IMG/VR virus record: IMGVR_UViG_3300023278_002686
Location: 32,001-96,000 of that record
Length of the DNA stretch: 64,000 nt
Reading direction: 5' to 3' (one strand)
Source of the DNA: a virus
Under the pieces are notes generated by a model. It made no database searches. It saw only the letters and a program-made list of their open reading frames with translations, and was not told the origin of the DNA. Of this stretch, positions 13,895-35,406 are shown in pieces (position 1 is the first letter of the stretch; each line of letters begins with the position of its first letter). The position numbers were made by a program, and so were the translations under genes.

Positions 13895-14518
13895 ATGAAA
13901 TTAATTAAACCATCATATGAAATTTTAGATCATATTAATAGATTTCAAGTTCTTAGTAAATTAGAATTAGCTGGTAGAACGTGCTATAAATCTGAATCGA
14001 AAATTACTGAAGAATCTGCTTCTAAATTTGTAGAAATGATTTGTAAAAGAAATCATGAAAGTGTTTTAGAACATTTTTCTTTTTCTGTTAGATTTATCTG
14101 TGATAGAGGAGTATCTCATGAATTAGTTAGGCATAGATTAGCAAGTTATTCACAGGAATCGACTAGGTATTGTAATTACTCTAAAGATAAATTTGGAAAT
14201 GAATTAACATTTATTAGACCTTTATGGTTTCCTTATGATGAAGATAGTTCTAATGAAGCTATAGAGATTTGGAAAGTTTCTTTAATAACATCTGAGAATG
14301 CTTACTTTAATCTATTAAAAGAAGGATGGACACCTCAACAAGCTAGATCAGTTCTTCCAAATTCCCTTAAAACAGAAATAATTACTACTGCTAATTTGAG
14401 AGAATGGAAGCATATTCTTGAATTAAGAACCTCAACAGCAGCTCACCCTCAAATAAGGCAAATTATGATACCATTACAGAATGAATTACGTAGTATAATA
14501 CCAGAAATTTTTAAATAA
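13895..14518 (+). CDS. thyX: flavin-dependent thymidylate synthase
   Basis: HESVLEH, ThyX motif RHRLASYSQESTRY, ARSVLP, NLREW..LR, AHPQIR. Confidence 0.95.
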   Translation: MKLIKPSYEILDHINRFQVLSKLELAGRTCYKSESKITEESASKFVEMICKRNHESVLEHFSFSVRFICDRGVSHELVRHRLASYSQESTRYCNYSKDKFGNELTFIRPLWFPYDEDSSNEAIEIWKVSLITSENAYFNLLKEGWTPQQARSVLPNSLKTEIITTANLREWKHILELRTSTAAHPQIRQIMIPLQNELRSIIPEIFK

Positions 14519-17698: not shown

Positions 17699-18564
17699 TG
17701 GGTGGTGGAACATATTCAATTAGTAATAGTACTTCACGTAGGGATACGTTGGATTATGCTCATAAATCAATAGATCAGATTTTTACAAGTAAATCTATTG
17801 AAAAAACAATGGACCCTATAAATTTCGATATAAGAGAAGCTAGAGATAGTGAAGAACATCCTGAATCTATTGCAGTAATTATTAATTTAGATGTAACTGG
17901 GTCAATGGGAGCAATACCACATTATTTAATTCGAAATGGACTTCCAAATCTTATGGGAAAAGTTCAACAATTAGGAATTAAAGATCCTCAAATTCTTATG
18001 ACTGCTATTGGAGATCACGAATGTGATAGATCTCCTTTACAAATAGGACAATTCGAATCTAGTGACGAACTTATAGATAAGTGGTTAACTTCTATTTATG
18101 TAGAAGGAGGTGGTGGTGGAAATAATGGAGAAAGTTATCTTTTAGCATGGTATCTTGCTACATTTAAGACCTCTATCGATTGTTGGGAAAAGAGAAAACA
18201 AAAAGGATTTCTTTTTACAATAGGTGATGAACCTACTCTTAGGAATATTCCTGGATTAGTATTAAACGATCTATGTGGAAATGGACAACATAAAGATTAT
18301 TCTGCTACAGAGCTTTTAAGTTTGGCAAAAGAAAAATATCATGTTTTTCATTTACATCTTAAGGAAGGGTTTAATGGTATGGATCCTAATGTTATGGGAG
18401 ATTGGAAACAATTGCTTGGAGAAAATCTTATTATTATAGATAATAAAGAAGATATCTCAAAAGTAATTCCAGAAATTATTGCTAAACATTATAAGAGTAA
18501 TGTATTAGAAGAAGTAGTTTCTGTTTCAGAAAATGAAGAAGAAAAAGAGGAAATTATATTATGA
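17698..18564 (+). CDS. von Willebrand factor A domain protein
   Basis: MIDAS-like LDVTGSMG, IGD, EGGGGNNGESY, FTIGDE. Confidence 0.85.
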   Translation: MGGGTYSISNSTSRRDTLDYAHKSIDQIFTSKSIEKTMDPINFDIREARDSEEHPESIAVIINLDVTGSMGAIPHYLIRNGLPNLMGKVQQLGIKDPQILMTAIGDHECDRSPLQIGQFESSDELIDKWLTSIYVEGGGGGNNGESYLLAWYLATFKTSIDCWEKRKQKGFLFTIGDEPTLRNIPGLVLNDLCGNGQHKDYSATELLSLAKEKYHVFHLHLKEGFNGMDPNVMGDWKQLLGENLIIIDNKEDISKVIPEIIAKHYKSNVLEEVVSVSENEEEKEEIIL

Positions 18565-19679
18565 GTAATGTAGCCGTTATTGGATTAGGTTTTGGTGATG
18601 AGGGTAAAGGATTAGTAACTGATTATCTATGTTCTAAATTATCTAATCCTTTAGTGGTTAGATTTTCTGGTGGACACCAGGCTGCTCATAATGTAGTATT
18701 TAAAGATACACAACATATATTTTCTAATTTTGGATCAGGTACATTAAGATGGATTCCTACTTACTGGAGTCCTCAATGTACTATTGATCCTATTGGAATT
18801 TTAAATGAATTAAAAATTTTAAAAGATAAAAATATAAATCCAAAACTTTTTATAGATGCTGAATGCCCAGTTACCACACCGTATGATAAGTGTGCTAATC
18901 AAATACAATTTACTAAGAATAATCATGGATCAGTAGGGGTTGGATTTGGAACTACTATTCAAAGAGAAAAAGATTTTTATTCTTTAAAATTTATAGATTT
19001 ATTTTATCCTCAAGTTTTTAAAGAAAAATTAAAAATGATTATTAATTATTATGATTTTTCAACACCTCAAGACGAAATAGATATTATTACCAGAGAATTT
19101 AAAATGGTTTGTAAGGAATTAATTAGAACTAAAGGAATTGAAATGGTTCCTTATAGATCTTCAATGAATTTTGATAATTATATATATGAAGGATCTCAAG
19201 GATTAATGTTAGATCCTAAAATTGGATTTTTTCCACATGTTACTCGATCAAATATAATGATAAATACTTTAAAGAATAATGATTATATTCGTCAATATTA
19301 TATGGTAACTAGAGCATATTGTACTCGACATGGAAATGGACCATTTCCTAATGAAGGAAAAAGTGATCATATAAAAGATAATCCAGATGAAACAAATGTA
19401 TATAATGAATATCAAGGTAATTTTAAAAAAATTATTTTAGATGTTTCTTTATTAGAATATGCTATAAGAAGAACTTCTTTAAAAAGATATAATTCAAAAA
19501 ATACATTAGTAATTACATGTATGGATCATTTAAGTGAGTACTTATTTTTATATTCAGGACAAGTTTGTAAAGCAGATAGTAAAGAAGATATGGCTATTAA
19601 GATAGCATCTTTATTAAATATAGATCATGTTTTAATAAGCACAGGTTGTACAGCTGACGATATAAAGGAAATAAACTAA
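18561..19679 (+). CDS. divergent adenylosuccinate synthetase-like (PurA-fold) enzyme
   Basis: GLGFGDEGKG, RFSGGHQAAH, EGSQGLMLD, PHVTRS, TRHGNGPFP; lacks the TTGRxR aspartate loop. Confidence 0.8.
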   Translation: MSNVAVIGLGFGDEGKGLVTDYLCSKLSNPLVVRFSGGHQAAHNVVFKDTQHIFSNFGSGTLRWIPTYWSPQCTIDPIGILNELKILKDKNINPKLFIDAECPVTTPYDKCANQIQFTKNNHGSVGVGFGTTIQREKDFYSLKFIDLFYPQVFKEKLKMIINYYDFSTPQDEIDIITREFKMVCKELIRTKGIEMVPYRSSMNFDNYIYEGSQGLMLDPKIGFFPHVTRSNIMINTLKNNDYIRQYYMVTRAYCTRHGNGPFPNEGKSDHIKDNPDETNVYNEYQGNFKKIILDVSLLEYAIRRTSLKRYNSKNTLVITCMDHLSEYLFLYSGQVCKADSKEDMAIKIASLLNIDHVLISTGCTADDIKEIN

Positions 19680-21153: not shown

Positions 21154-21704
21154 ATTTATGTGAAATATGCAAAGACGATAGAAAAATTTTCTATTCAACA
21201 AAATGTAAACAATCTCTTTGCGTAAAACATTATATGCAATTGAAAAGATTTGAAAAAATAAGAGATAATACACCGTCTATTCCTAAAAAAAATAACGAAT
21301 GGATTAAGAAAAAAGATCATTATATATTACGTATTCATACTAAAAATAAGTATAATGATGTTTTAATTGATTTAAATGATTTTGCAAAAGTATCTAGATA
21401 TCATTGGAATATTATTTCTAATAGATATGTTATACATGCAAAATCTAAAACTTATTTATCTAATTTACTATTAAATTCTAAAGATGTTAATAAAAAAGTT
21501 TTACATATAGATGGAAATAGTCTAGATAATAGAAAAGAAAATTTAAAAATAATTGATATACATAAATATTTAGAAAAAGGAATTTCTTTTGATAAAGATA
21601 CAGGCAAATATGTAATATATTTATATATGGGTAGATATAATACATTAAAAGAAGCTCAAACAAAGAAAAAAACTTTTGATAAAATATTACAGGAGATGAA
21701 ATGA
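21150..21704 (+). CDS. HNH homing endonuclease-like protein
   Basis: VLHIDGNSLDNRKENL followed by truncated AP2-like KGISFDK...YMGRY. Confidence 0.75.
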   Translation: MNLCEICKDDRKIFYSTKCKQSLCVKHYMQLKRFEKIRDNTPSIPKKNNEWIKKKDHYILRIHTKNKYNDVLIDLNDFAKVSRYHWNIISNRYVIHAKSKTYLSNLLLNSKDVNKKVLHIDGNSLDNRKENLKIIDIHKYLEKGISFDKDTGKYVIYLYMGRYNTLKEAQTKKKTFDKILQEMK

Positions 21705-22219
21705 TTTTAATTACAAAAATATGGAATGTTAAAACGCCTACAAGAGGATCTGAATTATCTGCTGGATTAGATTTTTATATACCGGAAGCGACTCCTGAGT
21801 TTATAGGAATTTTATCCTGGAAAAATGGATTAGATCTTAATATTTTTGAGGAAAACCCTGAAATTAAGATTTTTCCTTTCGAGAAAATAATTATTCCTTC
21901 CGGTATTAAAGTAAAAATTCCTAAAGATAAAGTATTAGTTGCTTTCAATAAATCAGGAATAGCTCTTAAAAAAGGATTAGATGTTGGTGCTAGTGTAGTA
22001 GATGCTGACTATGAAGGTGAAATTCATATACATCTTACGAATACAACACAAACAATAAAAGTTTTAAAATTTGGACAAAAAGCAGTACAATTTTTATTAT
22101 TAGATATAAATTATGATAAAATATTAGAAGTTACAGGAGAAGAACTTGAAAAAAGACATGTACTGGATCATAATAGTGATAGAGGTTCAGGTGGATTTGG
22201 AAGTACAGGATTAACATAA
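21701..22219 (+). CDS. dut: trimeric dUTPase
   Basis: SAGLD, NKSG, VVDADYEGEI, RGSGGFGSTG. Confidence 0.93.
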   Translation: MILITKIWNVKTPTRGSELSAGLDFYIPEATPEFIGILSWKNGLDLNIFEENPEIKIFPFEKIIIPSGIKVKIPKDKVLVAFNKSGIALKKGLDVGASVVDADYEGEIHIHLTNTTQTIKVLKFGQKAVQFLLLDINYDKILEVTGEELEKRHVLDHNSDRGSGGFGSTGLT

Positions 22220-22575: not shown

Positions 22576-23670
22576 ATGAGCATTGGAATATTAAAATTAG
22601 GTGGAAGATTAACCTGGGATGCAGTAGATAAAACAGGTGGCTTAGGAGAAGCGAAAGCTATTTGTGAACTTCTTGCAAAACATAGAAAATTATATATATA
22701 TACGAAAATAAATAATAAAGACAATCTTAATCCAAAACATAATATTAATATATGGGATATAAATACTGTTCATGATTCTTTAGATGATCATGACATATTA
22801 ATAATATTTAATGGACATGTTAATTTTTATGGTGGAGCAGAAAATCCTGAGCAAATAAAGATTTATGAACTAATTAATAAATTTAAAGGTAAAATATTCT
22901 ATATACTTATAGATCCTAATTTGTATTTAAAACAAATATGGAATTCTGTAGAAAAAAAAGAATGGGGATCTAAATATTCTAAAGAGGATATTTTTATTAC
23001 ACGAAATGACATTAATATAATTACTTCTATCTATAATAGAGAAGCAGGTGTCATGCTGTGGAGTAAAGGAAAAATTCCATTTAAAACTTATAATTATTTT
23101 TCATTTGAAAAGTATCCTATGATATTTGCAATGCTTCAGCCTACTTCTAATTTAAAATATGATATATTATATATGGGAACATTCAGAAATGGAAAACGTC
23201 AAGATAAAATGATTAAATATTATTTTGGACATAAATATATAAATTCTATATTTATTGGAAAAACAAAACTTAAAGATTTTACTAAAAAATATTCTGAATT
23301 GATACCTGAGTTTTTACCTCCAGTCCAATTTAAAGATATAGGAACTGAAGTAAATCAATCAATTGCTCATGTATGTATAGGAGATAAATTTTATGAAGGA
23401 AATATTCTTACACCTAGAATATATGAGTGTATAAACTTTAATACTATCTGTTTTATAGATTCTGATCTAGATAAAAATAGATATATATTTGGAGATAATG
23501 ACTATTTTTATGTATCTTCGAGAGAAGAAGTTGAAGAAAAAGTTTTAGAATTAAAAAACAATATAGATTTTAGATTAGAAATGTTACAAAAACAAAGAGA
23601 ATTGATAAATTTTGATATTGATAATTACTCACAAAGATTATATAATATTCTTATAGGAGCTAAAATATGA
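22576..23670 (+). CDS. bgt: DNA beta-glucosyltransferase homolog (T4 BGT-like)
   Basis: Colinear with recalled T4 BGT: VNFYGG (INFFGG), YILID (YLFTD, catalytic Asp), YMGTFRNGKR (YGGSFRSGQR), IGDKFY (IGDKNY), TPRIYE (TLRVWE). Confidence 0.88.
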   Translation: MSIGILKLGGRLTWDAVDKTGGLGEAKAICELLAKHRKLYIYTKINNKDNLNPKHNINIWDINTVHDSLDDHDILIIFNGHVNFYGGAENPEQIKIYELINKFKGKIFYILIDPNLYLKQIWNSVEKKEWGSKYSKEDIFITRNDINIITSIYNREAGVMLWSKGKIPFKTYNYFSFEKYPMIFAMLQPTSNLKYDILYMGTFRNGKRQDKMIKYYFGHKYINSIFIGKTKLKDFTKKYSELIPEFLPPVQFKDIGTEVNQSIAHVCIGDKFYEGNILTPRIYECINFNTICFIDSDLDKNRYIFGDNDYFYVSSREEVEEKVLELKNNIDFRLEMLQKQRELINFDIDNYSQRLYNILIGAKI

Positions 23671-25478
23671 AAGTAACTATATTTAGTGGAGGAACTGGAA
23701 GTATTGCTTTATCTACAGGATTAAAGAAATTATTTCCTGAAATAGAAATTACTCATTTATTAAATGCTTATGATGATGGTAAATCTACTGGGATTGTAAG
23801 AAAAATGTATAACTGTTTAGGACCCTCAGATATTCGAAAAGTTCAATGGTTATATTATTCTTTATCACATAAAAATATAGATAAAAGATTAGAAGTTTTA
23901 TATAATGATAGAGTTGATTTAAATAAGATAGATGTTAAAAAATATTTAGATCTTTTTAAAGATAATGAATACTTTGGTTTTAAAAAATATTTAAATAAAG
24001 CTTTTAATTTATTTATAGACAATATAGATCATTATTTTGTCTTGAACTCAGACAATATGAAAGATTTTAATTTAATGAACTTAGTATATGCTTCTATGTT
24101 TAGTCATCCTGAATTTGGATATAAGTCTACTATAGACTACTTTAATAAAGTATTAGGAATAGAAGATACGATAGATTTAGTGTCTTATGATAATTTAAGT
24201 CTATGTGCTACTACTAAATATAATAAAGAATTAATTTGTGAAGCTGATATTGTAAATTATAATAATCCTAATGATAAAATACAATCAATTTATTTTGTAG
24301 ATTCTAGTGAAAACTATCAAACTCCTTTAATGAATCCAAAAATAAAGACTTATATAGAAGAAAGTGATATGATAATTATTTCTCCAGGAACTGAATGGAG
24401 TAGTTTAATTCCATCATTTATAGATCAAGAAGAGGAAATTATTAATTTAATCAGAAATCATCCATTAGTTATTAAAGTAATAAATAATGAATATGATTTA
24501 GATAGTGTAGGAGTTTCTAATAAAGAAATAATATCTCATTATAGAATTTTATTTGAAAATTTGAATAATTTTAATATAATTATTAATTTAGATGCAAGAA
24601 AAGAATTACAAATGTTAGATTTACCTAGTGAGTGTGGCATATATATACAACAAATGGATAATATAGATGGAAAACATAATCCTGATAAATTAGCTAAGTT
24701 TATACTTAACATTTTTTTAAGAAAAAAAGGATTTTTACAAAATACTATTCTTATAGATTTTGATGATACTTTATGGCAAAGACTTGAAAAAAATGAAGAA
24801 ATATCTATAGAAAATATAAAACTTTTAAATGAACTTGGTAAATATAAAAAAATCCACATCATATCAGGTAATTCATATGAAAGTATTAAATCTAAATTAT
24901 TAAAAGTATTTACTTTAAAAGAATTTTATAATTTAAACTTTAGTATAAGAGCAGATGGTGGAAGTAATTTATATGAACAAGACCAAATAGTTACTTATTT
25001 AGAAGATAATTATGTATGTCAAAGTACAATAGATTTAGTAGAAAATGTAATTAATACTCATAAAGAATTATTAGGTAATGATTCTATACACTTTGAAAAA
25101 AGAGGAATACGCCCTGATGATAGAGTAACCTGTTTAGCTATTAAGCCTATTTCTAAATTATTAAGAAAATTATTTTGTGAATATTTAAATTTACATTTAG
25201 AAAAAGAAAATGTAAGCGGAATTGGTATTGAAACTGGTTTCGCTACAATTGAAGTTAAATGGTTTCGTTTTAATAAGTCTCTAATGTTAGAACATATTCC
25301 AGATTTAGAGAATACCATCTATATAGGTGATGAGTGTGATTACTTAAATGGAAATGATTATGAAATTTCTAAAAAATGTACTGATTATTATAATGTAGAT
25401 TCTATAAAAGAAACTAATACATTATTAAAAGTATTATTATTTTATAAGAAAAGAAAAGAAAATGAAACAAATACTTAA
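23667..25478 (+). CDS. CofD/YvcK-family phosphotransferase domain fused to HAD (IIB, phosphomannomutase-like) domain
   Basis: N-term FSGGTGS, AYDDGKSTG, GPSDIRK, ISPGT..SSL, KHNP..LA; C-term IDFDDTL, ISGN, NK, YIGDE...GNDYEI. Confidence 0.8.
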   Translation: MKVTIFSGGTGSIALSTGLKKLFPEIEITHLLNAYDDGKSTGIVRKMYNCLGPSDIRKVQWLYYSLSHKNIDKRLEVLYNDRVDLNKIDVKKYLDLFKDNEYFGFKKYLNKAFNLFIDNIDHYFVLNSDNMKDFNLMNLVYASMFSHPEFGYKSTIDYFNKVLGIEDTIDLVSYDNLSLCATTKYNKELICEADIVNYNNPNDKIQSIYFVDSSENYQTPLMNPKIKTYIEESDMIIISPGTEWSSLIPSFIDQEEEIINLIRNHPLVIKVINNEYDLDSVGVSNKEIISHYRILFENLNNFNIIINLDARKELQMLDLPSECGIYIQQMDNIDGKHNPDKLAKFILNIFLRKKGFLQNTILIDFDDTLWQRLEKNEEISIENIKLLNELGKYKKIHIISGNSYESIKSKLLKVFTLKEFYNLNFSIRADGGSNLYEQDQIVTYLEDNYVCQSTIDLVENVINTHKELLGNDSIHFEKRGIRPDDRVTCLAIKPISKLLRKLFCEYLNLHLEKENVSGIGIETGFATIEVKWFRFNKSLMLEHIPDLENTIYIGDECDYLNGNDYEISKKCTDYYNVDSIKETNTLLKVLLFYKKRKENETNT

Positions 25479-26175
25479 ATTTAAAGAACTATTTGAAAAA
25501 TGTTCTAATGAACGATTTAAAAACTATAAAGAGATTATGGATTTTTGTCAATTGAAATCAAGTAAATTAAATGATATATGGTTTAATAGTAATAAGACAG
25601 ATTATAGTGTATATGAACATAATGATTATATTTATGATATGTTTATATGTTATGGTTTTTATTCTAGTGCAGCTATTAGATATATGATAAAATATTTTAA
25701 AGAAAATATTTCTAATTGGAAAGATTTAACTTATTTTGATGATTATAATGGAATTGGATTAACTACACTTCATTTATTAAATGAAGAATTAAAATCATAT
25801 TATTTTAATGATAATAAAATTCAATTAAATACCTTTAAAAAGTTATGTGAATCATATAAATTTGATATTCCAATTTTAGATAAAAATAAAAAAAATATAT
25901 ATGATGTATATATTAGTTTGGAAATAATAGAACACTATAAAGAACCTTTAAAGTATTTAAAAGAAGCAACTAATAGGATTAAAGATAATGGATATTTAAT
26001 ATATACTACAACATTTAATCCTTTATTTTTAGGTCATCATCATGAATATATAATAGATGGTAAAATTTATTTACCTAAAAAAACTAATAGAATAGTAAAT
26101 TCTTATTTAAGAGAAAATTTTGAACTTTTATTTAGAGGATTTAATGGATTACCAAAAATTTATAAAAAGAAGTAA
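25462..26175 (+). CDS. class I SAM-dependent methyltransferase
   Basis: Motif I-like FDDYNGIGLT, YDVYISLEIIEH, IKDNGYL. Confidence 0.7.
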   Translation: MKQILKFKELFEKCSNERFKNYKEIMDFCQLKSSKLNDIWFNSNKTDYSVYEHNDYIYDMFICYGFYSSAAIRYMIKYFKENISNWKDLTYFDDYNGIGLTTLHLLNEELKSYYFNDNKIQLNTFKKLCESYKFDIPILDKNKKNIYDVYISLEIIEHYKEPLKYLKEATNRIKDNGYLIYTTTFNPLFLGHHHEYIIDGKIYLPKKTNRIVNSYLRENFELLFRGFNGLPKIYKKK

Positions 26176-26178
26176 TAT

Positions 26179-26919
26179 ATGAAAAAATTAGGAATTATAT
26201 TAGCTGCGGGAAAACAATCTAGAATAAATTCTTTAATACCTAAAGCTTTGTTTCATCACAATGGAGAATTTCTTTTAGAAAAAAATATTCAAGTAATGAA
26301 AAAATATGTAGATAAAATCTATGTCATAATAGATGAAGATAAACTTTCTTTTTATCCGAAAGAAAAAGATAGAGAATATATTTTAATAAATCCCGGAGGT
26401 GGAACTGGTCATTCACTATATAATGCATTAATTAAATGTAATCAAATAATATCTAATAGATTTGATAAAGAATATATCATTAAATGGTCAGATGCTTTTC
26501 ATGACGATTATTTTTATGAAGAATTATTTAAATATGATGTTTCGAATTATTTAAGTAAAGTTTTGATAAGTAAAATAAAAAATCCTTATGTAGAATTCAT
26601 TATGACTGAAAATATTTGTCAAAAAATATTATTTTCAAAAAATGGAGATATATGTTCTAAAGAAGGATATCAAGATGCTTCTATATTTTCTTTTAATGGA
26701 AAAAGTTTGTATCTATTATTAACAATATTTGTTAGTCAATATTATAATTTTCAGATAAAAGGCATACAATATAATACAACTAATCAAGAATTTAACTTAT
26801 TAGATTTATATAATATTAGTCCATCTTTAACTAAAACTACAAAATGGATTTATATAGATCGACTTCCTAAATCATTTAATACAATAGAAGAATATGAAGA
26901 AAATTTTGATATTTCATAA
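26179..26919 (+). CDS. nucleotidyltransferase (NTP_transferase/MobA-like fold)
   Basis: IILAAGKQSR...PKAL, GGGTG, WSD, FNT.EE C-terminal motif. Confidence 0.8.
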   Translation: MKKLGIILAAGKQSRINSLIPKALFHHNGEFLLEKNIQVMKKYVDKIYVIIDEDKLSFYPKEKDREYILINPGGGTGHSLYNALIKCNQIISNRFDKEYIIKWSDAFHDDYFYEELFKYDVSNYLSKVLISKIKNPYVEFIMTENICQKILFSKNGDICSKEGYQDASIFSFNGKSLYLLLTIFVSQYYNFQIKGIQYNTTNQEFNLLDLYNISPSLTKTTKWIYIDRLPKSFNTIEEYEENFDIS

Positions 26920-26933
26920 GTTTTTTATATTAT
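26906..26933 (+). promoter_or_regulatory. sigma70-like promoter for nucleotide-precursor genes
   Basis: TTGATA-N16-TATTAT. Confidence 0.6.
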
Positions 26934-26950
26934 ATATATAAGGAGATAAC

Positions 26951-27502
26951 ATGGTAGTAATATTTGAAGGTCCTGATAATGTAGGAAAAGGAACTCAAAT
27001 TAGAAATATATTTCAAGAATTAAGTAAATCAAAACCTACACATACATTACATTATTCAGGAATTAAAAGAGATTTTTCTGAGGATGCTTTAAAAGATTCT
27101 AAAAAAATATATAAAAGTATGTTTAGATTATTAAATCAAAATTATATTCAATCTAATTTTATTTTAGATCGAAGTCATTTAGGTGAGTATGTTTATGGAC
27201 ATTTGTATAGAAAATATGATCCTAGTTATATATTTGATTTAGAAAAATCTATATTTCCAGGAATGATGAGCCAAACTTACTTATTAATGTTCATAGATAA
27301 CCCTATGAACCTCATCAAAAGAGATGATGGACTTTCTTTATCTACAAAAAAAAGATATAAGATTATAGAATTATATAGATTTCAAGAAGCTTTTAAATTA
27401 TCACATATCAAAAATAAATTTCTAATAGATATAGAAGGAAAAGATATTAATGATGTTAAACAAGAAATATTTAATTATTTAGACATTGAGGGAGATCTAT
27501 AA
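26951..27502 (+). CDS. thymidylate-kinase-like dNMP kinase
   Basis: IFEGPDNVGKGT P-loop, LDRSHLGEYVYG. Confidence 0.85.
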   Translation: MVVIFEGPDNVGKGTQIRNIFQELSKSKPTHTLHYSGIKRDFSEDALKDSKKIYKSMFRLLNQNYIQSNFILDRSHLGEYVYGHLYRKYDPSYIFDLEKSIFPGMMSQTYLLMFIDNPMNLIKRDDGLSLSTKKRYKIIELYRFQEAFKLSHIKNKFLIDIEGKDINDVKQEIFNYLDIEGDL

Positions 27503-28230
27503 TGCTAAGATATAATGAAATAACTATGTTACATTTTTTTAAAGATCTCTATAAGAAAGTAAAAGATGAAGATTTTGTAGTAGACAAATCTGGAGTCAAG
27601 ATGGCTGAAATAATAGCTCCAAAATTTGAATTGAATCCTAAACAAAAAATATTAAATTTTAATGAGACAAGAAAAACTCCTGAGAAATATGCTGAACAAG
27701 AATTAGCTTGGTATGATTCTCAAAGTCTTTCTATTAAAGGATATGTTGATAATGTAAAGATATGGCAACAAGTATCTTCATATAAGAAAGAAGTAAATTC
27801 TAATTATGGATGGTGTATTTATTCCCCTGATAATTATAGTCAATATTATAATTGTTTAAAAGAATTAATTAGAAATAAAGATTCAAGAAGAGCCGTTATG
27901 ATTTATCAAAGACCATCTATGTGGTTAGATTATAATAAAGATGGTATGTCAGATTTTATATGCACAGATGGGAGCCAATTATTTATAAGAAATAATAATA
28001 AAGGTGAAGACACTTTAATATATATTGTGAAACAAAGATCTATGGATATGATTTATGGGTTTTTTAATGATTTTTATTGGCATGGTATAGTATATGAACG
28101 AATGCTTAAAGATTTAAAAAAGACATATCCGAATTTAAATAATGGAAAGATAATATATGTTCCATTTTCGGCCCACGTATATGAAAAACATTTTAGTATG
28201 CTAAAGGAGATTGTTAATTGTGAAAAATAA
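27502..28230 (+). CDS. dCMP hydroxymethylase-like thymidylate synthase homolog (T4 gp42-like)
   Basis: ELAWY, VNSNYGW, IYQRPSM.LDYNKDGMSDFICT, QRSMD, GFFND (Asp = dCMP specificity), HVYEKHF. Confidence 0.9.
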   Translation: MLRYNEITMLHFFKDLYKKVKDEDFVVDKSGVKMAEIIAPKFELNPKQKILNFNETRKTPEKYAEQELAWYDSQSLSIKGYVDNVKIWQQVSSYKKEVNSNYGWCIYSPDNYSQYYNCLKELIRNKDSRRAVMIYQRPSMWLDYNKDGMSDFICTDGSQLFIRNNNKGEDTLIYIVKQRSMDMIYGFFNDFYWHGIVYERMLKDLKKTYPNLNNGKIIYVPFSAHVYEKHFSMLKEIVNCEK

Positions 28231-28651
28231 AATTGAATATTTTAAAAAGATAGCTCTTGAGACTGAAAATAATTCTACATGTGGTAGATTACATGTAGGA
28301 GCTGTTTTAGTAAAAGACGAGCGTATAATTTCTATAGGTTGGAACGGAACTCTTCCAGGAAAAATACATTGTGAAAATTTATTTGCAAAGAAAAAACTTA
28401 CATTAGCAACACACCATGAATGGTCATTAAAAAATGAACTTCATGCTGAAATGAATTTATTAATGTTTTGTGCAAAAAATGGAATTAAAACAAAAGGTTG
28501 TGAAGTATTTATTACAGTAAGTCCTTGTATGCTATGTACAAAATTGATAATTGCTGCAGGGATTAAAAAAGTTTATTTTATTTTGCAATATAATGATTTT
28601 GATGAAGTATTTAAATCTTTTAGAAAGGATTTAAAGTTTATACAAATTTAA
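28211..28651 (+). CDS. dCMP deaminase
   Basis: STC.R..VGA, GWNG, LHAEMN, SPCMLC; start may be GTG at 28220. Confidence 0.9.
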   Translation: MLIVKNKIEYFKKIALETENNSTCGRLHVGAVLVKDERIISIGWNGTLPGKIHCENLFAKKKLTLATHHEWSLKNELHAEMNLLMFCAKNGIKTKGCEVFITVSPCMLCTKLIIAAGIKKVYFILQYNDFDEVFKSFRKDLKFIQI

Positions 28652-28662
28652 CTATATAAATA
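28651..28662 (+). promoter_or_regulatory. late promoter motif at head of glycan island
   Basis: ACTATA TAAAT A. Confidence 0.6.
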
Positions 28663-28683: not shown

Positions 28684-29217
28684 ATGTTAAAAAATAAATT
28701 AAAACAATTTTTAATTTTATTTATAATTGGATTCGTTTCATATATTTGTTTAGAGGTTTTTTTCGGATCAAGTTCTGGAGCTTTTTTTAAAGAAGCATTT
28801 TGTTTAGATAAATCTTATTGGAGTCTAATGGGGATGTCATCTATGTGGATGGGATTAGTTGGTGGAATTACTTTTATTTCTTTAGGTTTAATTAACGAAA
28901 ATAAATTTATTCGATTTAAAGTACCATATATATTACAATTTATTTTAGGTGGATTAATAATTACTGGATATGAATTATTATCTGGAATAATTTTAAATTT
29001 AGGGTTAGGCTTAAATATTTGGGATTACTCTACTAGATTTTGGAATTTCTTAGGTCAAATTAATTTATATACTTCAATAATTTGGTTTATAATTTCTCCT
29101 TTTGGATTTTGGTTAGATGATTTAATACGTAATCTTTTTAAGTGTAGATGGTTTGGTACAAAATCATTAGGAACATATTATTTAAATGTTATATTAAATA
29201 AACATCCTTGGAAATAG
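28684..29217 (+). CDS. 4-TM membrane protein (CmpB/TMEM229-like putative permease)
   Basis: YICLEV, WMGLVGG, ITGYELLSG, IWDYS..WNFLGQINL. Confidence 0.75.
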   Translation: MLKNKLKQFLILFIIGFVSYICLEVFFGSSSGAFFKEAFCLDKSYWSLMGMSSMWMGLVGGITFISLGLINENKFIRFKVPYILQFILGGLIITGYELLSGIILNLGLGLNIWDYSTRFWNFLGQINLYTSIIWFIISPFGFWLDDLIRNLFKCRWFGTKSLGTYYLNVILNKHPWK

Positions 29218-29218
29218 A

Positions 29219-30307
29219 ATGAAAAAAGTATTAATATTAGGTAACGGATTAAGTAGACAAAAATTTGAAAGCATAGAATTTATTAATAATTGGGATGGGG
29301 AAATATGGGGTTGTAATAACGTTTTTAGAGAACGTATAAAGTTACCTAGATTAGATTTAATTATTGGTGATGATCAAACTGTGATAGATGGTTATCATTA
29401 TAAGCTTGATAATAAATTAGATTATGAGATATATGCAAAAAGACATATTACAAATTATACTAATCATAGAATACAGATAGTACATTTGCCTCAAGAATAT
29501 ATAAAAGATTCTGGAACTACACTAATATATAAAGCTTTATTTGAAAATTATGATGAAATTAAAGTTTGTGGATTTGATTGTGGTGGTAAAGATATATATG
29601 TTAAAGGACATGAAAAAAAAGATAAAACAATTTGGATAAAACGTTGGAGAGAAATTGATAAAGTATTTACTCTTAGAAAAATAGAATTCATTTGTAATCC
29701 AGAAATAAAAGAATTTATTATGAGTAAACGAGATCCAAGAGATCATCTTAATACATATTTTCCTGGAAAAATAAATAATAAAGTTAAAGAAAGAAATTTT
29801 GGAGCTAAAACAGTTCTTATATTAGGAAATGGTGCTTCAAGAATTAAATATAAAGATTTTATTAATAATTGGACAAGTGAAATATGGGGATGTAATTGGT
29901 TGTTTAAAGAAGCGGATAGTCATGAAAATCTTACTCGAATTGGAAGTGTTCATAATGAAGTAATATCAGAAGCATATAAGTTTAAAAAAGAGAATAATTA
30001 TAACTATCTATTATATACAAAGCCAGTATTTAGAGAAGAATTTAAAGATAAGTTTATTTCTTATTTTTCAGATCCTAGAGGATGGGCAACTGGGCCTTTA
30101 ATGGTATTACAAGCATTAACTGAAAATTATAGACGTATTTATTTAAGTGGATTTGATTTTGGAGGAAAAGATGTCTATCAAAATCATTTTATAGAAGGGA
30201 GTAATTTTCAAAAACAGTTTGTAGAAATAATTTCTAGGTTTGGTCATAGAAAATTAAAATTTGTTGGAAAAACTCCAAAATTTATATTGCAGTTACAAAG
30301 GAAGTAG
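29219..30307 (+). CDS. tandem-duplicated glycosyltransferase-like domain protein
   Basis: Two copies of VLILGNG.SR...FINNW..EIWGCN...SG/TG...ENY..I...GFD.GGKD.Y. Confidence 0.6.
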   Translation: MKKVLILGNGLSRQKFESIEFINNWDGEIWGCNNVFRERIKLPRLDLIIGDDQTVIDGYHYKLDNKLDYEIYAKRHITNYTNHRIQIVHLPQEYIKDSGTTLIYKALFENYDEIKVCGFDCGGKDIYVKGHEKKDKTIWIKRWREIDKVFTLRKIEFICNPEIKEFIMSKRDPRDHLNTYFPGKINNKVKERNFGAKTVLILGNGASRIKYKDFINNWTSEIWGCNWLFKEADSHENLTRIGSVHNEVISEAYKFKKENNYNYLLYTKPVFREEFKDKFISYFSDPRGWATGPLMVLQALTENYRRIYLSGFDFGGKDVYQNHFIEGSNFQKQFVEIISRFGHRKLKFVGKTPKFILQLQRK

Positions 30308-30308
30308 T

Positions 30309-31070
30309 ATGAAAATTGCGCTAATTACAATGATGGATGATCGATTTATAAAAGGTTTTGAAGCTTTTATTAAATCATTATTACATCATAATCCTTGGTT
30401 TAATTATCCTATGATAATTATTAATACAGGATTAATAAAAGAAAATCAAAAGAAATGTAAAAAGATGTATGACAATATCCATTTTTTCGCTCCTAAAGAA
30501 AGAGAATATCGACATGTCAATATGAAAAGAACTGAATATTGTTTACGAAAAACATACTATAAGTTAGACATGTTTTCTTATGAAAATTTTGATCGATTAG
30601 TTTTTATTGACATGGATACTATTATATTAGGAGATATCTCTTATTTATTTACACAGGTTGTGGCACCAATTGGAGCTTGTAAGGCATATGATTGGAAAGG
30701 AGATAGATTACGAAACGATTATAACTCAGGAGTTTTAGTTCTTAATTCTCCAGTAATTAACCTAGGAACATATAGAAAATTAATTATAAAAGCAAGACAA
30801 GGTTATTCGATGCCAGATCAAAAAACTATTAATAACTTTTTTGGTAAAAGAATATATCAAATACCTAAAATTTATAATTGTGAAAAACGTGTGAAGGATA
30901 GTATTTTTCTTCATTATGACAATAATAAAGGTAAATTAAGATTACAACAAGATGATATTAGAATACTTCATTTTGTTTCTCATAAACCTTGGAATCCATC
31001 TGGAAAATCGGAAAATAATCAAGGATACGAAGACTTAGAAGAAATATGGAAAAAATATTATGAGATGTAA
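30309..31070 (+). CDS. GT8 family glycosyltransferase
   Basis: YYKLDMF, FIDMDT (DxD), YNSGVLV, PDQ..IN, YN, ILHF...KPW; start at ATG 30309. Confidence 0.88.
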   Translation: MKIALITMMDDRFIKGFEAFIKSLLHHNPWFNYPMIIINTGLIKENQKKCKKMYDNIHFFAPKEREYRHVNMKRTEYCLRKTYYKLDMFSYENFDRLVFIDMDTIILGDISYLFTQVVAPIGACKAYDWKGDRLRNDYNSGVLVLNSPVINLGTYRKLIIKARQGYSMPDQKTINNFFGKRIYQIPKIYNCEKRVKDSIFLHYDNNKGKLRLQQDDIRILHFVSHKPWNPSGKSENNQGYEDLEEIWKKYYEM

Positions 31071-31285
31071 TGAAACTACTATTGATCATAGTCTTATTTT
31101 ACTAAAAGATACTATTAAATTATTAAAAAAAATAAAAAAAGAATCCAATTTTTATGATTGGTGGCCTATGATAGAATGTAACTTGATCAATATAAATAAT
31201 CTATTAGAAGTTAACAAGGAGAAATAATATGAACTGTACTTGGAAAAATTGTAATAATGGAAGAGCTTATGGAGATTAATGATTA

Positions 31286-31681
31286 ATGGTAGTAACTCAA
31301 ATTATTGAATGTGATTGTGGCAAAGAACATGAAGTAAATATAAATAATCCTTATATGGGAAAAAAACCGTATTCTTTTGAATTAGATTTTTGTCCTTCTT
31401 GTGGTAAAATGTTTAATTGTCCTGTATGCGGAAATAATTGTTGTTCACCATGCTATGGTCATTTAGATGGTGATTATACTGATGAATCTACTAAATGTCC
31501 TTTTTGTGAACTAACCTTTCAATATCAAGATTTATTTAGTTTAGTAACTCAATTAGCTTTTTTAAATGATACTGAATGGTTGAAGTGGGATAATGATCGT
31601 ACTAAATTATCTAAAGAAGAAATAATAAATAAAGCAATGAAAAATTTAAAAAATATAGGGAGTTTACATGGAAAAAATTAG
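31286..31681 (+). CDS. Cys-rich zinc-binding protein
   Basis: CDC, CPSC, CPVC..CC..C, CPFC. Confidence 0.6.
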   Translation: MVVTQIIECDCGKEHEVNINNPYMGKKPYSFELDFCPSCGKMFNCPVCGNNCCSPCYGHLDGDYTDESTKCPFCELTFQYQDLFSLVTQLAFLNDTEWLKWDNDRTKLSKEEIINKAMKNLKNIGSLHGKN

Positions 31682-32246
31682 TATAAGGAATGCTAAGTTT
31701 GCAAAAATTGGATTACATGATTTTTGTAAATATGTAAATAAATTTAAAAATACACGAGAAATGACTATTTTAGAAATAGGATCATATGTAGGAGATTCTA
31801 CACAAATATTTGCAAATTATTTTAAGAAAGTAATTGCGATAGATCCTTGGGAAAATGGATACGATGAAAATGATCAATCTTCATATAAATATCCAATGGC
31901 AATTATAGAAGCTCAATTTGATGGGATGAGAACAAACTTTCAACATATTGAAAAAATAAAAGATAAAGCAGAAAATGTTGTTTCTAAATTTGCAGATAAT
32001 TCAATTGACATAGTATATGTTGATGGACTTCATTCTTATGATGGAGTTATTAATGATATAAAAGATTGGTATTGTAAAGTAAAAAACGGTGGTTGGTTAG
32101 CTGGACATGATTATAAAAACAAACATCATCCTGGAGTAGAAAAAGCTGTTCATGAAATAGTTGGTCTTCCAGAAATGAGATTTGGAGATACTTCTTGGAT
32201 ACTTCCAAAGAAGACTATAGTAACTAGAGGAGGATTAAAACTATAA
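31668..32246 (+). CDS. class I methyltransferase (Methyltransf_24-like)
   Basis: LEIGSYVGDS, IDPW, DIVYVDGLHSY, GGWLAGHDY. Confidence 0.85.
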   Translation: MEKISIRNAKFAKIGLHDFCKYVNKFKNTREMTILEIGSYVGDSTQIFANYFKKVIAIDPWENGYDENDQSSYKYPMAIIEAQFDGMRTNFQHIEKIKDKAENVVSKFADNSIDIVYVDGLHSYDGVINDIKDWYCKVKNGGWLAGHDYKNKHHPGVEKAVHEIVGLPEMRFGDTSWILPKKTIVTRGGLKL

Positions 32247-32842
32247 TGGTATACGCAAAATTATCTACATTATCTGAAAAATGGAAAGAATTAGATGGAA
32301 AGTATCCATGTAAATATGATTGGCCTAAAGATTGTGGAAGACAATGTGGTGATAGCGGAATTGTATTGCGTAAAGGATCTATGGATGAAGTATTTACTTC
32401 AGAAAATCCTGTAAAAGAAGTAGTCGATAGTTACTCTTATACTACAGCATTTTTTGAAGCCTTTCCTAAAGAACCCTCTACATTTATTCGGGGAGAAGGA
32501 AAAACATTAGAAGAAGCTGAAAAAGCTGCTTGGGATAAACTTCAAAAATATAGTAAATGTGATCATCCTGAATTTGATAGAAAAGGATATAAAAATGGAG
32601 GATGTTTTTGTATAGAATGCGGAATGTTTTCCTCTCATTTAGAACCAACTACGGTATGTACTGTTTGTAATATACCTACTAATTATGGTACTGACAAAAA
32701 TAATCAGTGGTATTGTAAAGAACATTATAAAGAATTACCCGATGATATGTTACATGATTATATCTTATTATCTAAAAAAAGAAGAAAACAAGTAGATAAA
32801 ATTTTAAAAAAAAGGAAAACTTATGATTTGGAAAAAGTTTAA
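32246..32842 (+). CDS. conserved phage protein with Zn-ribbons
   Basis: TAFFEAFP...FIRGEG...AE..AW, CDH, CIEC, CTVC. Confidence 0.65.
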   Translation: MVYAKLSTLSEKWKELDGKYPCKYDWPKDCGRQCGDSGIVLRKGSMDEVFTSENPVKEVVDSYSYTTAFFEAFPKEPSTFIRGEGKTLEEAEKAAWDKLQKYSKCDHPEFDRKGYKNGGCFCIECGMFSSHLEPTTVCTVCNIPTNYGTDKNNQWYCKEHYKELPDDMLHDYILLSKKRRKQVDKILKKRKTYDLEKV

Positions 32843-33086
32843 AACTATTGAAGATTTAGAACAAGGTGATATTGTTATTTGGAAAAATACTAATGATTTT
32901 AAAGAATTTTGTTTAGTAACTGATTGTGGTTTAGAATCTTTTGTAGAAGGTTGGACCTATAATTGGATGGATAGAGATTATGAGAGTGATGGAAATTTTT
33001 ATAATATAGATGATGAATATATTGGAACTATTACAGGATATACTCGATTAGATATACCTAAAGATACAGAAATTTATGAAGAATAA
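32823..33086 (+). CDS. hypothetical protein
   Basis: 87 aa ORF in operon. Confidence 0.5.
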   Translation: MIWKKFKTIEDLEQGDIVIWKNTNDFKEFCLVTDCGLESFVEGWTYNWMDRDYESDGNFYNIDDEYIGTITGYTRLDIPKDTEIYEE

Positions 33087-33194
33087 ATTGATAAAATGGA
33101 GTTCTATTATATTATTAGCTATAATGGCATTTGCTTTTAAGAATGTAATTTTATTATTAATTTCTATATTTTTAATTGCTACATAGGAGGATTT

Positions 33195-33884
33195 ATGAAT
33201 AATGAACAAGCAACTCAAGTTTTTAGGAATTATATCAAAGGAAAACGAGTTATTTTTGTAGGTCCAGCTGCCAATTTAATGAATAGAGGACTTGGATCTT
33301 TAATTGATTCTTATGATGTAGTAGTAAGAACCAATGGATCTAAAGTATTAGATAGATCTCTTTGGAAAGATTATGGATGCAGAACACATATTTGTTATTT
33401 TAATGTACAACATTTAAGAGAAGAACATCCTTTTCCTATAGAAGACATGAAAGCTCACAGAATAGATCATTTAGTATTTAAGGGAGTAAGTAAAGGTATA
33501 CGAGACTATTACGAAACTTATTTTAATGTTCGAGATGTAGCACCCTTAATTCAAGAATTACATAGAAAAATTGATGGATTACTTATGGGTCCAATTCTTA
33601 TTACTGACTTACTTGAGAGTAAACCCAGTGAGCTTTTTGTTACTGGGATTGATTGTTATATAACTAAACCTGATGCGTTTATACCAGATGACTATCGTGA
33701 ATATTATCCTAAATATTTAGGAAATAAAATAGAAACAAAAGCTAATGTAGCTAACATAGGACGAATTGATCCTCACTTAAAGAAGAAAGATAATACTATA
33801 TATATAAAACAATTAATCGATTCTAAACAAATAACGACACATGATTTTGTACTGGAATCGATAAAAAAAGCATTAATGAGGTAA
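33195..33884 (+). CDS. GT29-like sialyltransferase
   Basis: Sialylmotif-L-like VIFVGPAANL..RGLGSLIDSYDVVVRTN...DYGCRT; LLMG, VTGIDCY, late His. Confidence 0.75.
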   Translation: MNNEQATQVFRNYIKGKRVIFVGPAANLMNRGLGSLIDSYDVVVRTNGSKVLDRSLWKDYGCRTHICYFNVQHLREEHPFPIEDMKAHRIDHLVFKGVSKGIRDYYETYFNVRDVAPLIQELHRKIDGLLMGPILITDLLESKPSELFVTGIDCYITKPDAFIPDDYREYYPKYLGNKIETKANVANIGRIDPHLKKKDNTIYIKQLIDSKQITTHDFVLESIKKALMR

Positions 33885-33886
33885 TT

Positions 33887-34315
33887 ATGAAGATTTTAAA
33901 ACAAAAGAAAGAACAGTATTTAAATACTATTCAGGTGTATGGAAAACCATCTAATATTTATATAAACCCTACTGTAAGCGAGTTAATTGACTTAACATTA
34001 AGAAGCAAATATGATGAATTTAGTTTTATTATAGATAATAGACATAAGACTATTTATTCATTTGATTGTACTGTTTTACACAGTGATGTATGTAAATTTT
34101 TAAAATTATCGTATCCATCTGATAAAATTTTACCAGGACTTGGATATTTTAAAGGTAAAAATTCATATAGTAAAATTTCAGGAACACTAATTGATCTTAT
34201 ATCAAGTAATCCTGAATTAGTTCGTAAATTATGTAAACAAAATTGGAAATGGGCTAATAAATATATATATACACAAACTTTATTAGATGATATTATGGAA
34301 AGATTATCAAACTAA
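33887..34315 (+). CDS. putative internal virion protein
   Basis: MKILKQKKE leader; IYINPT..EL. Confidence 0.5.
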   Translation: MKILKQKKEQYLNTIQVYGKPSNIYINPTVSELIDLTLRSKYDEFSFIIDNRHKTIYSFDCTVLHSDVCKFLKLSYPSDKILPGLGYFKGKNSYSKISGTLIDLISSNPELVRKLCKQNWKWANKYIYTQTLLDDIMERLSN

Positions 34316-34335
34316 AAAATTATTAAGGAAATAAA

Positions 34336-35406
34336 ATGTTAAAAAAATCTTTAAAGGTCTTTGATTTACCTACATCGGATTCTAGTTATTTATCAGTTAG
34401 TCAAGATAGCGAAAATCGTATAAAGATGTATTATCGAAAATGGCTAAAGCATTGTCATGTATGGGGTATTCATGGAAATAATTCTAAGAATTTTACATTT
34501 ATAGAAGATCCTCTTATTAAAAAAACAGATGCGTCACATAACTTTACAGTTACGTATCAACCACATCTTAAATTATTTATAGGAATAGGGGGATTAGAAG
34601 AATGGAAAAGACAAAAACGCTGGCATGAAATTACGGATTTTGAAATTTTTAAAAAAGAATTTGAAGGATACTTTCATAAACCGTATGTAAGAGATGAGGC
34701 AAGATTTCTTTCTCTTAAAAAAGCATTAAAAGGATGGGTAAATCATTCAAATGGACTTTATCTTTTTCATTCTAAAGATGGGATAAACTGGAATCAAAGA
34801 CATCCTAATCATATTGCAACTATTCATGATAAAGGATTTACATGTGCTCTAGATTGGGGAAAATCTTCTGATTTTGATGGAATGAATAATTTAGTATATA
34901 ATCCACATGAACAACGTTATTATCTATATGTTAGATCTAATGTAGCTAAAGGAGTACGATACATACAGTATGCTACTTCAAAAGATTTGATAACTTGGTC
35001 TAAATGGAAAAATATAAATATGATTCCAGAATTTGATAAACATACAGATGGTTATTATTTTCCTAATTTTATGATGCATCCAACTAAGAATATTATGTTT
35101 GGATTAGTTCCTTATTGTTCTGCAAAAAAATCTTCTATACAATTATTTAAATCAACTGATGGATATAATTGGAATTATGTAGAAGAATATTTATCAAGAC
35201 CTCCAGTACCTTTAGTAAAAAAAGGAAAAATAAAAACATATAAAAATTATCATCATCCTGTTTTAGGCTATCTTTATGATAAAGATCAACAAATTTTATA
35301 TTTTTATATGCAGAATAACTATTTTATGTATGATAGATCTCATTATACCTACGTAGATCGATATAAAGTAATGGAAAAAGAATTAGATAAAAGGTTATGG
35401 ATATAA
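34336..35406 (+). CDS. beta-propeller glycoside hydrolase-like protein
   Basis: Asp-box-like repeats SKDGINW, SKDLITW, STDGYNW; YYLYVR. Confidence 0.65.
   Translation: MLKKSLKVFDLPTSDSSYLSVSQDSENRIKMYYRKWLKHCHVWGIHGNNSKNFTFIEDPLIKKTDASHNFTVTYQPHLKLFIGIGGLEEWKRQKRWHEITDFEIFKKEFEGYFHKPYVRDEARFLSLKKALKGWVNHSNGLYLFHSKDGINWNQRHPNHIATIHDKGFTCALDWGKSSDFDGMNNLVYNPHEQRYYLYVRSNVAKGVRYIQYATSKDLITWSKWKNINMIPEFDKHTDGYYFPNFMMHPTKNIMFGLVPYCSAKKSSIQLFKSTDGYNWNYVEEYLSRPPVPLVKKGKIKTYKNYHHPVLGYLYDKDQQILYFYMQNNYFMYDRSHYTYVDRYKVMEKELDKRLWI

Follow-up and report, generated by a model that had tools for sequence, protein, structure and literature searches.

Glycosylated 5-hydroxymethylcytosine (hmC) is a classic means by which phages shield their DNA from CRISPR nucleases and restriction enzymes. 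Which host defenses are effective, and which enzymes can read or cut the DNA, changes with every new sugar. Phages RB69, DLP3 and HY126 carry UDP-arabinose genes for arabinosylated 5-hydroxycytosine, encoding AfhE (a kinase/nucleotidyltransferase) and AfhF (a phosphatase of the haloacid dehalogenase, or HAD, superfamily) (PMC13326640). Phage hmC can also be glycosylated by dedicated TET-associated transferases that use UDP-Glc or UDP-GlcNAc (PMC8256090). The bacterial protein GlmR binds UDP-sugars and is reported to be an accessory uridyltransferase (PMC10128056, PMC7525490). Here we analyze a stretch of 64,000 nt (the window), comprising positions 32,001 to 96,000 of IMG/VR record IMGVR_UViG_3300023278_002686, which derives from an uncultured virus (155 kb, about 92% complete, about 25% G+C). 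The window contains a seven-gene cluster that encodes a homolog of the T4 β-glucosyltransferase (BGT), a fusion of a YvcK-like domain to a HAD domain, a methyltransferase, a nucleotidyltransferase, a P-loop kinase, a synthase of the T4 gp42 type and a dCMP deaminase.

With confidence somewhat above even, we propose that the fusion protein and the nucleotidyltransferase constitute a portable sugar-donor cassette for hmC glycosylation. This proposal is built on homology, catalytic residues, folds, gene linkage and gene fusions, from which we infer the substrates, including which sugar is attached and what is methylated. A sequence-only reading of the window had described seven contiguous genes, the first four overlapping or nearly abutting, and this description holds. 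All seven open reading frames (ORFs) are present on the + strand (Table 1), as is every gene between 19.9 and 31 kb of the window. The BGT and fusion genes overlap by 4 nt and the fusion and methyltransferase genes by 17 nt; gaps of 3 nt and 31 nt separate the nucleotidyltransferase gene from those for the methyltransferase and the kinase, respectively; and overlaps of 1 nt (kinase/synthase) and 20 nt (synthase/dCMP deaminase) complete the series.

The association between the cassette and DNA glycosyltransferases extends well beyond this virus. No related loci were returned when the single fusion sequence served as the query, whereas an alignment query recovered 46 IMG/VR loci. More than 650 full-length fusion homologs are present in public data, and the fusion also occurs in further metagenome contigs and at 54 loci in species-representative genomes. 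After near-identical copies were merged into 38 phage clusters, the nucleotidyltransferase gene was found to adjoin the fusion gene in 36 of them, and a BGT homolog lies no more than 2.7 kb upstream of the fusion in 29. The synthase is located within 10 kb of the cassette in 19 clusters and a kinase homolog, often abutting the synthase, within the same distance in 22. In phage loci that lack BGT, the pair is instead flanked on one side or on both by TET-associated glycosyltransferases (TAGTs; PF20691), and TAGTs are found in 5 of the 38 clusters. At one locus (L006) the fusion and the nucleotidyltransferase are joined in one protein of 825 aa. The order BGT, fusion, nucleotidyltransferase is the same in dozens of unrelated phage contigs, and therefore the arrangement is not due to chance. 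Co-occurrence of the extra enzymes with DNA glycosyltransferase and hmC genes was the point on which the sequence-only reading had staked itself, and these counts establish that it is recurrent and support a functional tie between these genes.

The same pair is also found in bacterial metagenome-assembled genomes (MAGs), mostly from Clostridia, without BGT, synthase or kinase. These bacterial copies lie behind a GT2 transferase, in polysaccharide loci with flippases and LicD/IspD genes. One bacterial protein of 1007 aa (L065:385-3405) unites GT2, YvcK-like and HAD domains, and at 14 loci in Clostridia MAGs this GT2 is encoded directly beside the fusion. In a tree of the fusion protein, BGT-linked and GT2-linked forms are interleaved, implying at least five to six switches of partner.

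The fusion protein (603 aa) yields an AlphaFold 2 (AF2) model with a confidence (pLDDT) of 89, in which residues 1-350 form a CofD/YvcK domain and residues 357-595 form a HAD domain. The N-terminal domain matches PF01933 with 68.5 bits (cut-off 30) over profile positions 1-196 of 290. Earlier, by analogy with coenzyme F420 synthesis, this domain had been likened to CofD. Structure comparison does not bear out that analogy: alignment by VIA-align to YvcK/UPF0052 structures gives Z scores of 29.5-29.7 (root-mean-square deviation 2.4 Å, 287-288 residues aligned, 22% identity), whereas CofD/FbiA structures reach only 19.4-20.9. The domain also shares the GGTG, DDGxSxGxxR and GPG/SxxTSxxP motifs with the YvcK structures 2q7x and 2p0y. 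Its score against the NCBIfam YvcK model TIGR01826 is 60.4 bits, far under the cut-off of 196, and we regard it as a distinct subfamily next to YvcK/GlmR. Polar residues that are invariant in 24 homologs include D36, S40, T41, R45, D55, R57, K58, R82, N138, E192, D277 and D279.

The HAD domain keeps its catalytic motifs: the residues D364-x-D366-x-T368 (motif I), K537 (the motif III Lys), G554 and G562 are invariant in the same number of homologs, and a GD...GND motif (motif IV) is present. Foldseek ranks the atypical α-phosphoglucomutase (α-PGM) 4bnd first, followed by the phosphomannomutases (PMMs) PMM1/2. With VIA-align, however, PMM and α-PGM structures (Z 17.2-17.7) are tied with sugar phosphatases of the Cof type (Z 17.0-17.6). 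The sole PDB match at the sequence level is again 4bnd (E 0.52), with the ISGxxY and GNDY motifs in common.

The nucleotidyltransferase matches PF12804 with 34 bits, and its sequence LAAGKQSR...PKAL fits the (L)AAGxxxR...PK signature. A profile built from 29 cassette nucleotidyltransferases aligns with the uridylyltransferase domain of GlmU over 195 positions (E 3.2e-18). The profile ranks GlmU above archaeal sugar-1-phosphate nucleotidyltransferases and well above enzymes of the IspD, MobA and CobY types. CofC is not among the 60 PDB matches listed for the profile, the best of which are GlmU sugar-1-phosphate uridylyltransferase domains, and so the earlier analogy with CofC is not supported. 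In the profile alignment with GlmU the GxGHA and (Y/W)GD motifs are kept and the sugar-facing positions differ. Taken together, the domains of the fusion and the nucleotidyltransferase suggest a role in nucleotide-sugar metabolism rather than in the phospho-acid chemistry of F420.

The presumed user of the donor is the BGT homolog, which is recognized by PF09198 (E 1e-18), phrog_7922 (E 1.6e-53) and PDB entry 1bgt (E 2.6e-36). Six T4 residues, Asp100, Arg191, Arg195, Tyr261, Arg269 and Glu272, correspond to Asp113, Arg204, Arg208, Tyr273, Arg281 and Glu284, and in 21 cassette-linked homologs these positions vary little or not at all. From T4 structures we take Asp100 to be catalytic and Arg191, Arg195, Arg269 and Glu272 to contact UDP. 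Because these catalytic and UDP-binding residues are kept, the donor is likely to be a UDP-sugar, and linkage with a gp42-type synthase suggests that hmC is the acceptor. Among 79 phage loci that carry BGT, 42 hold the fusion and the nucleotidyltransferase, always both. Cassette carriers fall in one large clade of the BGT tree, with 13 non-carriers among them. The fusion was not found in complete genomes of these non-carrier clade-mates, although a positive control was detected. The cassette therefore behaves as an add-on, since close BGT relatives exist in complete phage genomes that lack it. For the same reason, a strict dependence of BGT on an unusual donor made by the cassette is unlikely, and a switch of donor is possible.

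The remaining genes resemble the core of an hmC pathway. Residues 18-234 of the synthase align with residues 17-225 of T4 dCMP hydroxymethylase (PDB 1b49/1b5e, E 5.7e-53). Cys154 aligns with the catalytic Cys148 of T4, and Asp190, in the sequence GFFND, aligns with T4 Asp179 in GFRND (N177D in E. coli numbering), the residue that specifies dCMP. The sequence-only reading had noted this Asp, and the alignment bears it out; the roles of the Cys and the Asp are taken from references cited in PMC13326640. Asp151 (SDFIC) is an acidic residue at the position of E. coli L143, and Asp182 (RSMD) occupies that of E. coli Asp169. The same 2026 paper showed that 5-hydroxy-dCMP is the product of phage homologs in which Asn occupies the D169 position, whereas an acidic residue at the L143 position together with Asp at the D169 position marks 5-hydroxymethyl-dCMP (hm-dCMP) synthases (PMC13326640). 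Because the window enzyme has Asp rather than Asn at this position, its expected product is hm-dCMP and not 5-hydroxy-dCMP.

Similarity of the kinase to thymidylate kinases is weak (PF02223 and TIGR00041, 25 bits each and both below cut-off; phrog_761, E 1.6e-12), and a PDB sequence search gave no match at E below 0.1. We consider this protein a candidate hm-dCMP (dNMP) kinase. The presence of ThyX, which the sequence-only reading had pointed out, is borne out by its profile match, and ThyX and dCMP deaminase appear to cover the supply of dTMP. Upstream of the cluster are a gene of the dUTPase family and a 114-codon ORF of unknown function. A dUTPase-family homolog adjoins BGT at one locus (L194) and is near the module in about 10 loci, and the window protein is a possible dUTPase/dCTPase that clears competing nucleotides.

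The methyltransferase falls below the cut-off of Pfam Methyltransf_23 (23.7 bits, cut-off 27), and its AF2 model (pLDDT 89.7) is a Rossmann fold with which its Atlas neighbors agree. Foldseek matches are all class I enzymes, namely generic small-molecule N- and O-methyltransferases (TM 0.4-0.55) that give no clue to the substrate. The fold is of the small-molecule type and not that of a DNA base methyltransferase. In motif I (DYNGIGLTT) G97 and G99 are invariant, and the weak family matches point to O-methyltransferases, UbiG and CmoB among them.

No homolog of this methyltransferase was present in the first 110 loci. A profile search then defined a family of 75 cluster representatives at E <= 1e-30. 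At one of its loci (L194) the gene order is dUTPase, BGT, methyltransferase, fusion, and the methyltransferase is 52% identical to that of the window. Elsewhere, BGT occurs about 5 kb from a gene of the family (L139), and a TAGT gene (PF20691) overlaps one (L191:9132-10729). Other class I methyltransferases are located between BGT and the fusion at L008, L036/L041, L048 and L031. At least six distinct loci have a methyltransferase within the module, and membership of such an enzyme, already claimed from the window, is thus recurrent. In protein P0224 (L196) a TAGT (PF20691) and the methyltransferase form a single chain, a Rosetta-stone link of a sugar or base methyltransferase to DNA glycosylation.

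The placement of this family beside DNA glycosyltransferases, and its fusion to one, make O-methylated hexosyl-hmC a plausible product. The methyltransferase most likely O-methylates the sugar, either on DNA or on the donor; alternatively, it may act on the hydroxyl of the base. Mainly through this enzyme, the virus could possess a DNA base that has not been recognized before. A separate context is seen at L192:282-2106 and L193, where a peptidase-U32-like protein (E 2.6e-6) is followed by a member of the methyltransferase family and then by a PolB exonuclease domain. Relatives of U32 hydroxylate C5 of pyrimidines in RNA, and this pair might make a methoxy-pyrimidine.

We envision the locus as an early or middle operon through which cytosine would be replaced by glycosylated hmC. 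The gp42-like synthase would produce hm-dCMP and the P-loop kinase would feed it towards the triphosphate, while dCMP deaminase and ThyX would maintain dTMP and competing nucleotides may be removed by the dUTPase-family enzyme. A hexose-1-phosphate would come from the HAD domain, acting as a mutase of the PMM/α-PGM type or as a bisphosphate phosphatase, and the nucleotidyltransferase would convert this compound to a UDP-hexose. After replication, the BGT-like transferase would move the hexose from the UDP-sugar onto the hydroxymethyl group. The YvcK-like domain would perform or control a third step, which could be the binding and hand-off of the UDP-sugar, an auxiliary uridylyl or phospho transfer, or modification of the sugar. 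Finally, the methyltransferase would most likely O-methylate the sugar to give O-methyl-hexosyl-hmC.

The sequence-only reading had offered two alternatives for the extra enzymes, synthesis of an unusual sugar donor or addition of a phosphodiester-linked group to glycosyl-hmC. Of these, the donor branch fits best and explains more simply how the cassette can serve three unrelated glycosyltransferase families. We favor donor supply because the unit is constant across these families, whose acceptors include both DNA and polysaccharide.

Several observations nevertheless weigh against this proposal. The YvcK-like domain is never missing and is strictly conserved, some 15 of its polar residues being invariant, yet the proposal assigns it no step, since a mutase and a nucleotidyltransferase would suffice for UDP-hexose synthesis. 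Complete phage genomes that have clade-mate BGTs and no cassette fit optional tailoring as well as they fit optional supply. In the nucleotidyltransferase profile alignment, a Lys/Ser-rich stretch replaces the E154 region of GlmU and Asp replaces N169, and with these sugar-pocket residues changed the enzyme may use something other than an ordinary hexose-1-phosphate. The HAD domain matches PMM2 with Z 17.7 and 3niw with Z 17.6, values by which mutase and phosphatase are not separable. Three of eight methyltransferase contexts are without a recognized glycosyltransferase. In favor of donor supply, fusions from phages and from cells do not differ in acidity (median isoelectric point, pI, about 5.5; net charge of the window fusion -17) and thus give no sign of adaptation to DNA, but this support is weak: even the BGT homologs are not strongly basic (median pI 6.4), and charge is therefore a poor test of DNA binding.

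If the cassette acted by phosphodiester tailoring, the nucleotidyltransferase would make an NDP-sugar or other NDP-X, and the YvcK/CofD-like domain would move the phospho-sugar or phospho-X onto a hydroxyl of the glucose placed by BGT, releasing NMP. The task of the HAD domain would be to provide the sugar-1-phosphate or to trim a phosphate, and the product would carry a phosphodiester-linked second group. Such a scheme gives consecutive roles to all three domains (mutase, nucleotidyltransferase and phosphotransferase) and accounts for the invariant polar residues of the N-terminal domain, which belongs to the CofD superfamily (PF01933; FbiA/CofD Z about 20), whose one well-defined reaction is a transfer of this kind. 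The optional presence of the cassette beside BGT is expected of a tailoring step, and one bacterial pair adjoins a LicD/IspD pair that does analogous phospho-alcohol decoration. However, the domain is structurally nearer to YvcK, a UDP-sugar binder with no established phosphodiester-forming activity. The acceptors would also have to come from three unrelated glycosyltransferase families, spanning DNA and lipid or polysaccharide, with repeated switches of partner, and the acidity that phage fusions share with cellular ones is unfavorable for work on DNA. No hydroxymethylpyrimidine that bears a phosphodiester-linked sugar is known to us as a precedent, and our literature searches found none. On balance, phosphodiester tailoring seems unlikely. 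A cytosine combining both chemistries, namely O-methylated hexosyl-hmC with a phosphodiester-linked sugar or phospho-group installed by the YvcK/CofD-like domain, would be undescribed and is quite improbable.

We also doubt that the product is an ordinary one, with the cassette boosting or replacing host UDP-glucose or UDP-GlcNAc, the modified base being plain β-glucosyl-hmC or GlcNAc-hmC, and the methyltransferase having an unrelated target. The bacterial pair does not occupy housekeeping positions but belongs to polysaccharide loci that are strain-specific, which points to a specialized product, and the sugar-pocket residues of GlmU are altered in the cassette enzyme. The repeated embedding of a methyltransferase in the module and the fusion of the window enzyme's family to a DNA glycosyltransferase likewise speak against an unrelated target, although some homologs of the window enzyme are without a nearby glycosyltransferase. 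Other evidence is what an ordinary product would predict: a host metabolite is enough for clade-mate BGTs in complete genomes that lack the cassette, the nearest relatives of the HAD domain and the nucleotidyltransferase are α-phosphoglucomutase and GlmU, and TET-associated phage DNA glycosyltransferases use UDP-Glc and UDP-GlcNAc (PMC8256090). It is highly improbable that the fusion, nucleotidyltransferase and methyltransferase are not a DNA system at all and serve virion or cell-surface glycosylation through a 14-kb glycan island only 33 nt downstream, with BGT a neighbor by accident of packing, for even though the pair's relatives in cells belong to polysaccharide loci, BGT or TAGT recurs with the cassette in roughly 50 other phage loci and island genes never do, and the island begins at a late-promoter-like motif, apart from the tightly overlapped cluster.

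Table 1. Coordinates in the window of the cluster genes, the fusion domains and associated features
Feature	Coordinates	Strand	Evidence
ThyX flavin-dependent thymidylate synthase	13895..14518	+	PF02511 E 2.2e-46
Trimeric dUTPase-family protein	21701..22219	+	PF00692 E 3.9e-17; PDB dUTPases down to E 1.9e-16
BGT-like DNA glycosyltransferase (GT63 type)	22576..23670	+	PF09198, phrog_7922, PDB 1bgt
YvcK-like/HAD fusion gene, whole	23667-25478	+	PF01933 and AF2 model
YvcK/GlmR-like (CofD superfamily) domain of 603-aa fusion	23667..24716	+	PF01933, VIA-align
HAD-IIB domain of fusion, PMM/α-phosphoglucomutase-like	24735..25478	+	Catalytic motifs, Foldseek, VIA-align
Class I S-adenosylmethionine-dependent methyltransferase, probable tailoring O-methyltransferase	25462..26175	+	AF2 fold, Atlas neighbors
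GlmU-like sugar-1-phosphate nucleotidyltransferase	26179..26919	+	PF12804, profile match
P-loop nucleotide kinase, candidate hm-dCMP (dNMP) kinase	26951..27502	+	PF02223, TIGR00041, phrog_761
dCMP hydroxymethylase (T4 gp42 type)	27502..28230	+	PDB 1b5e/1b49 E 5.7e-53
dCMP deaminase	28211..28651	+	PF00383 E 8.6e-23; phrog_174 E 9.5e-43
T4-type late-promoter-like motif ACTATATAAATA, downstream border of cluster	28651..28662	+	12-mer repeat search

The downstream border of the cluster carries the 12-mer ACTATATAAATA, which includes TATAAATA, the consensus of T4 late promoters. Identical copies are found at 12980, 43126 and 53701, each preceding another gene block. A looser form of the motif is only mildly enriched in the window (40 observed, 30 expected). 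The position of ACTATATAAATA at the cluster end suggests that the downstream sugar genes are probably a separate late unit. This glycan island (28684-43123, +) encodes three GT8 proteins, two GT29-like proteins, a KpsS/C-like Capsule_synth protein, a polysaccharide pyruvyl transferase and NeuB (E 8e-58). Also present are three methyltransferases (two Methyltransf_24 and one Methyltransf_11) and a protein of 362 aa with an internally duplicated GNG...GFDxGGKD domain and no Pfam match. None of the island genes recurs beside the cassette among roughly 50 other cassette-bearing phage loci, and on this ground we rejected the island as part of the hmC system.

The large terminase subunit (6847-8880, +) has only 24-27% identity to that of any cultured phage, from which we conclude that the virus is not a relative of T4. 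Yersinia phage YerA41, whose DNA is heavily modified, is among the nearest terminase relatives. A short PurA homolog (372 aa; 18561-19679, +; PF00709 E 2.7e-47) keeps the P-loop GDEGKG. Phage genes of this type can be PurZ, an enzyme of the 2-aminoadenine pathway; the PDB matches are to cellular PurA and do not assign the protein to either PurA or PurZ. The window also encodes an HD-domain enzyme of the CCA-adding/poly(A) polymerase family (4691-6022, +; PF01743 E 5e-37), and no tRNA genes were found in its 64 kb.

A search by tblastn of about 50,700 phage records identified the full-length fusion in one cultured phage only, the jumbo Ralstonia phage RsoM2USA (MG752970.1; L053/L054), and a partial match (68%) in the uncultured metagenomic phage record LR756500.1. 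In RsoM2USA the fusion is ORF1 (29% identity over 98% of the query), BGT is ORF2, the kinase ORF6, the synthase ORF10 and the nucleotidyltransferase ORF486, the last lying across the ends of the record; the phage has no counterpart of the methyltransferase. All of these genes are deposited in GenBank as hypothetical proteins, and the published description of the phage did not examine DNA modification. Nor did we find a paper that ties a CofD/YvcK domain, a PMM-like HAD protein or the cassette nucleotidyltransferase to hmC modification. Since this carrier is cultured, the chemistry is directly testable.

The partners of the cassette comprise DNA glycosyltransferases of two unrelated families and, in bacteria, polysaccharide transferases. 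If it supplies a donor, it would represent a new nucleotide-sugar route and would offer biochemical access to the YvcK/GlmR family, the activity of which is a matter of debate. O-methylated sugars would join the natural DNA modifications if the methyltransferase has the role proposed here. Should the product instead combine a phosphodiester with an O-methyl group, this would be the first defined group-transfer reaction for the YvcK family.

The system resembles several known pathways in part. It has in common with F420 synthesis by CofC/CofD (FbiD/FbiA) the superfamily of the N-terminal domain and an adjacent nucleotidyltransferase gene; in contrast, it has no F420 context, its partner genes are glycosyltransferases and its nucleotidyltransferase is GlmU-like. 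Firmicutes YvcK/GlmR proteins are the best structural match of the N-terminal domain and share its motifs, whereas the window form is fused to HAD, is paired with a nucleotidyltransferase and a glycosyltransferase, and occurs outside the type of operon that contains yvcJ, glmR and whiA. Clusters with TET-associated transferases can carry the same cassette and the same methyltransferase family beside TAGT-family enzymes. The main text of the report on these transferases does not mention a nucleotidyltransferase, CofD or a phosphomutase (PMC8256090). Unlike in those clusters, a gp42-type enzyme of the window would generate hmC ahead of replication, and a BGT-like transferase would glycosylate it.

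The T4 hmC pathway has a homologous gp42 synthase and a GT63-type transferase with the same key residues, in addition to dCMP deaminase and a separate thymidylate supply. The kinases differ, that of T4 being gp1 and that of the window being thymidylate kinase-like. T4 takes UDP-glucose from its host and is without the YvcK-like/HAD fusion, the nucleotidyltransferase and the methyltransferase. The systems of RB69, DLP3 and HY126 likewise offer DNA glycosyltransferases a phage-encoded nucleotide-sugar route with a HAD enzyme and a sugar-1-phosphate nucleotidyltransferase, and their sugar genes form a cluster with those for a dNMP kinase and a homolog of thymidylate synthase. The window differs from them in that its predicted base is hmC rather than 5-hydroxycytosine, its transferase is BGT-like and a methyltransferase is present. 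It has neither an arabinose-5-phosphate isomerase nor a kinase domain, and a YvcK-like domain stands in the place of the kinase.

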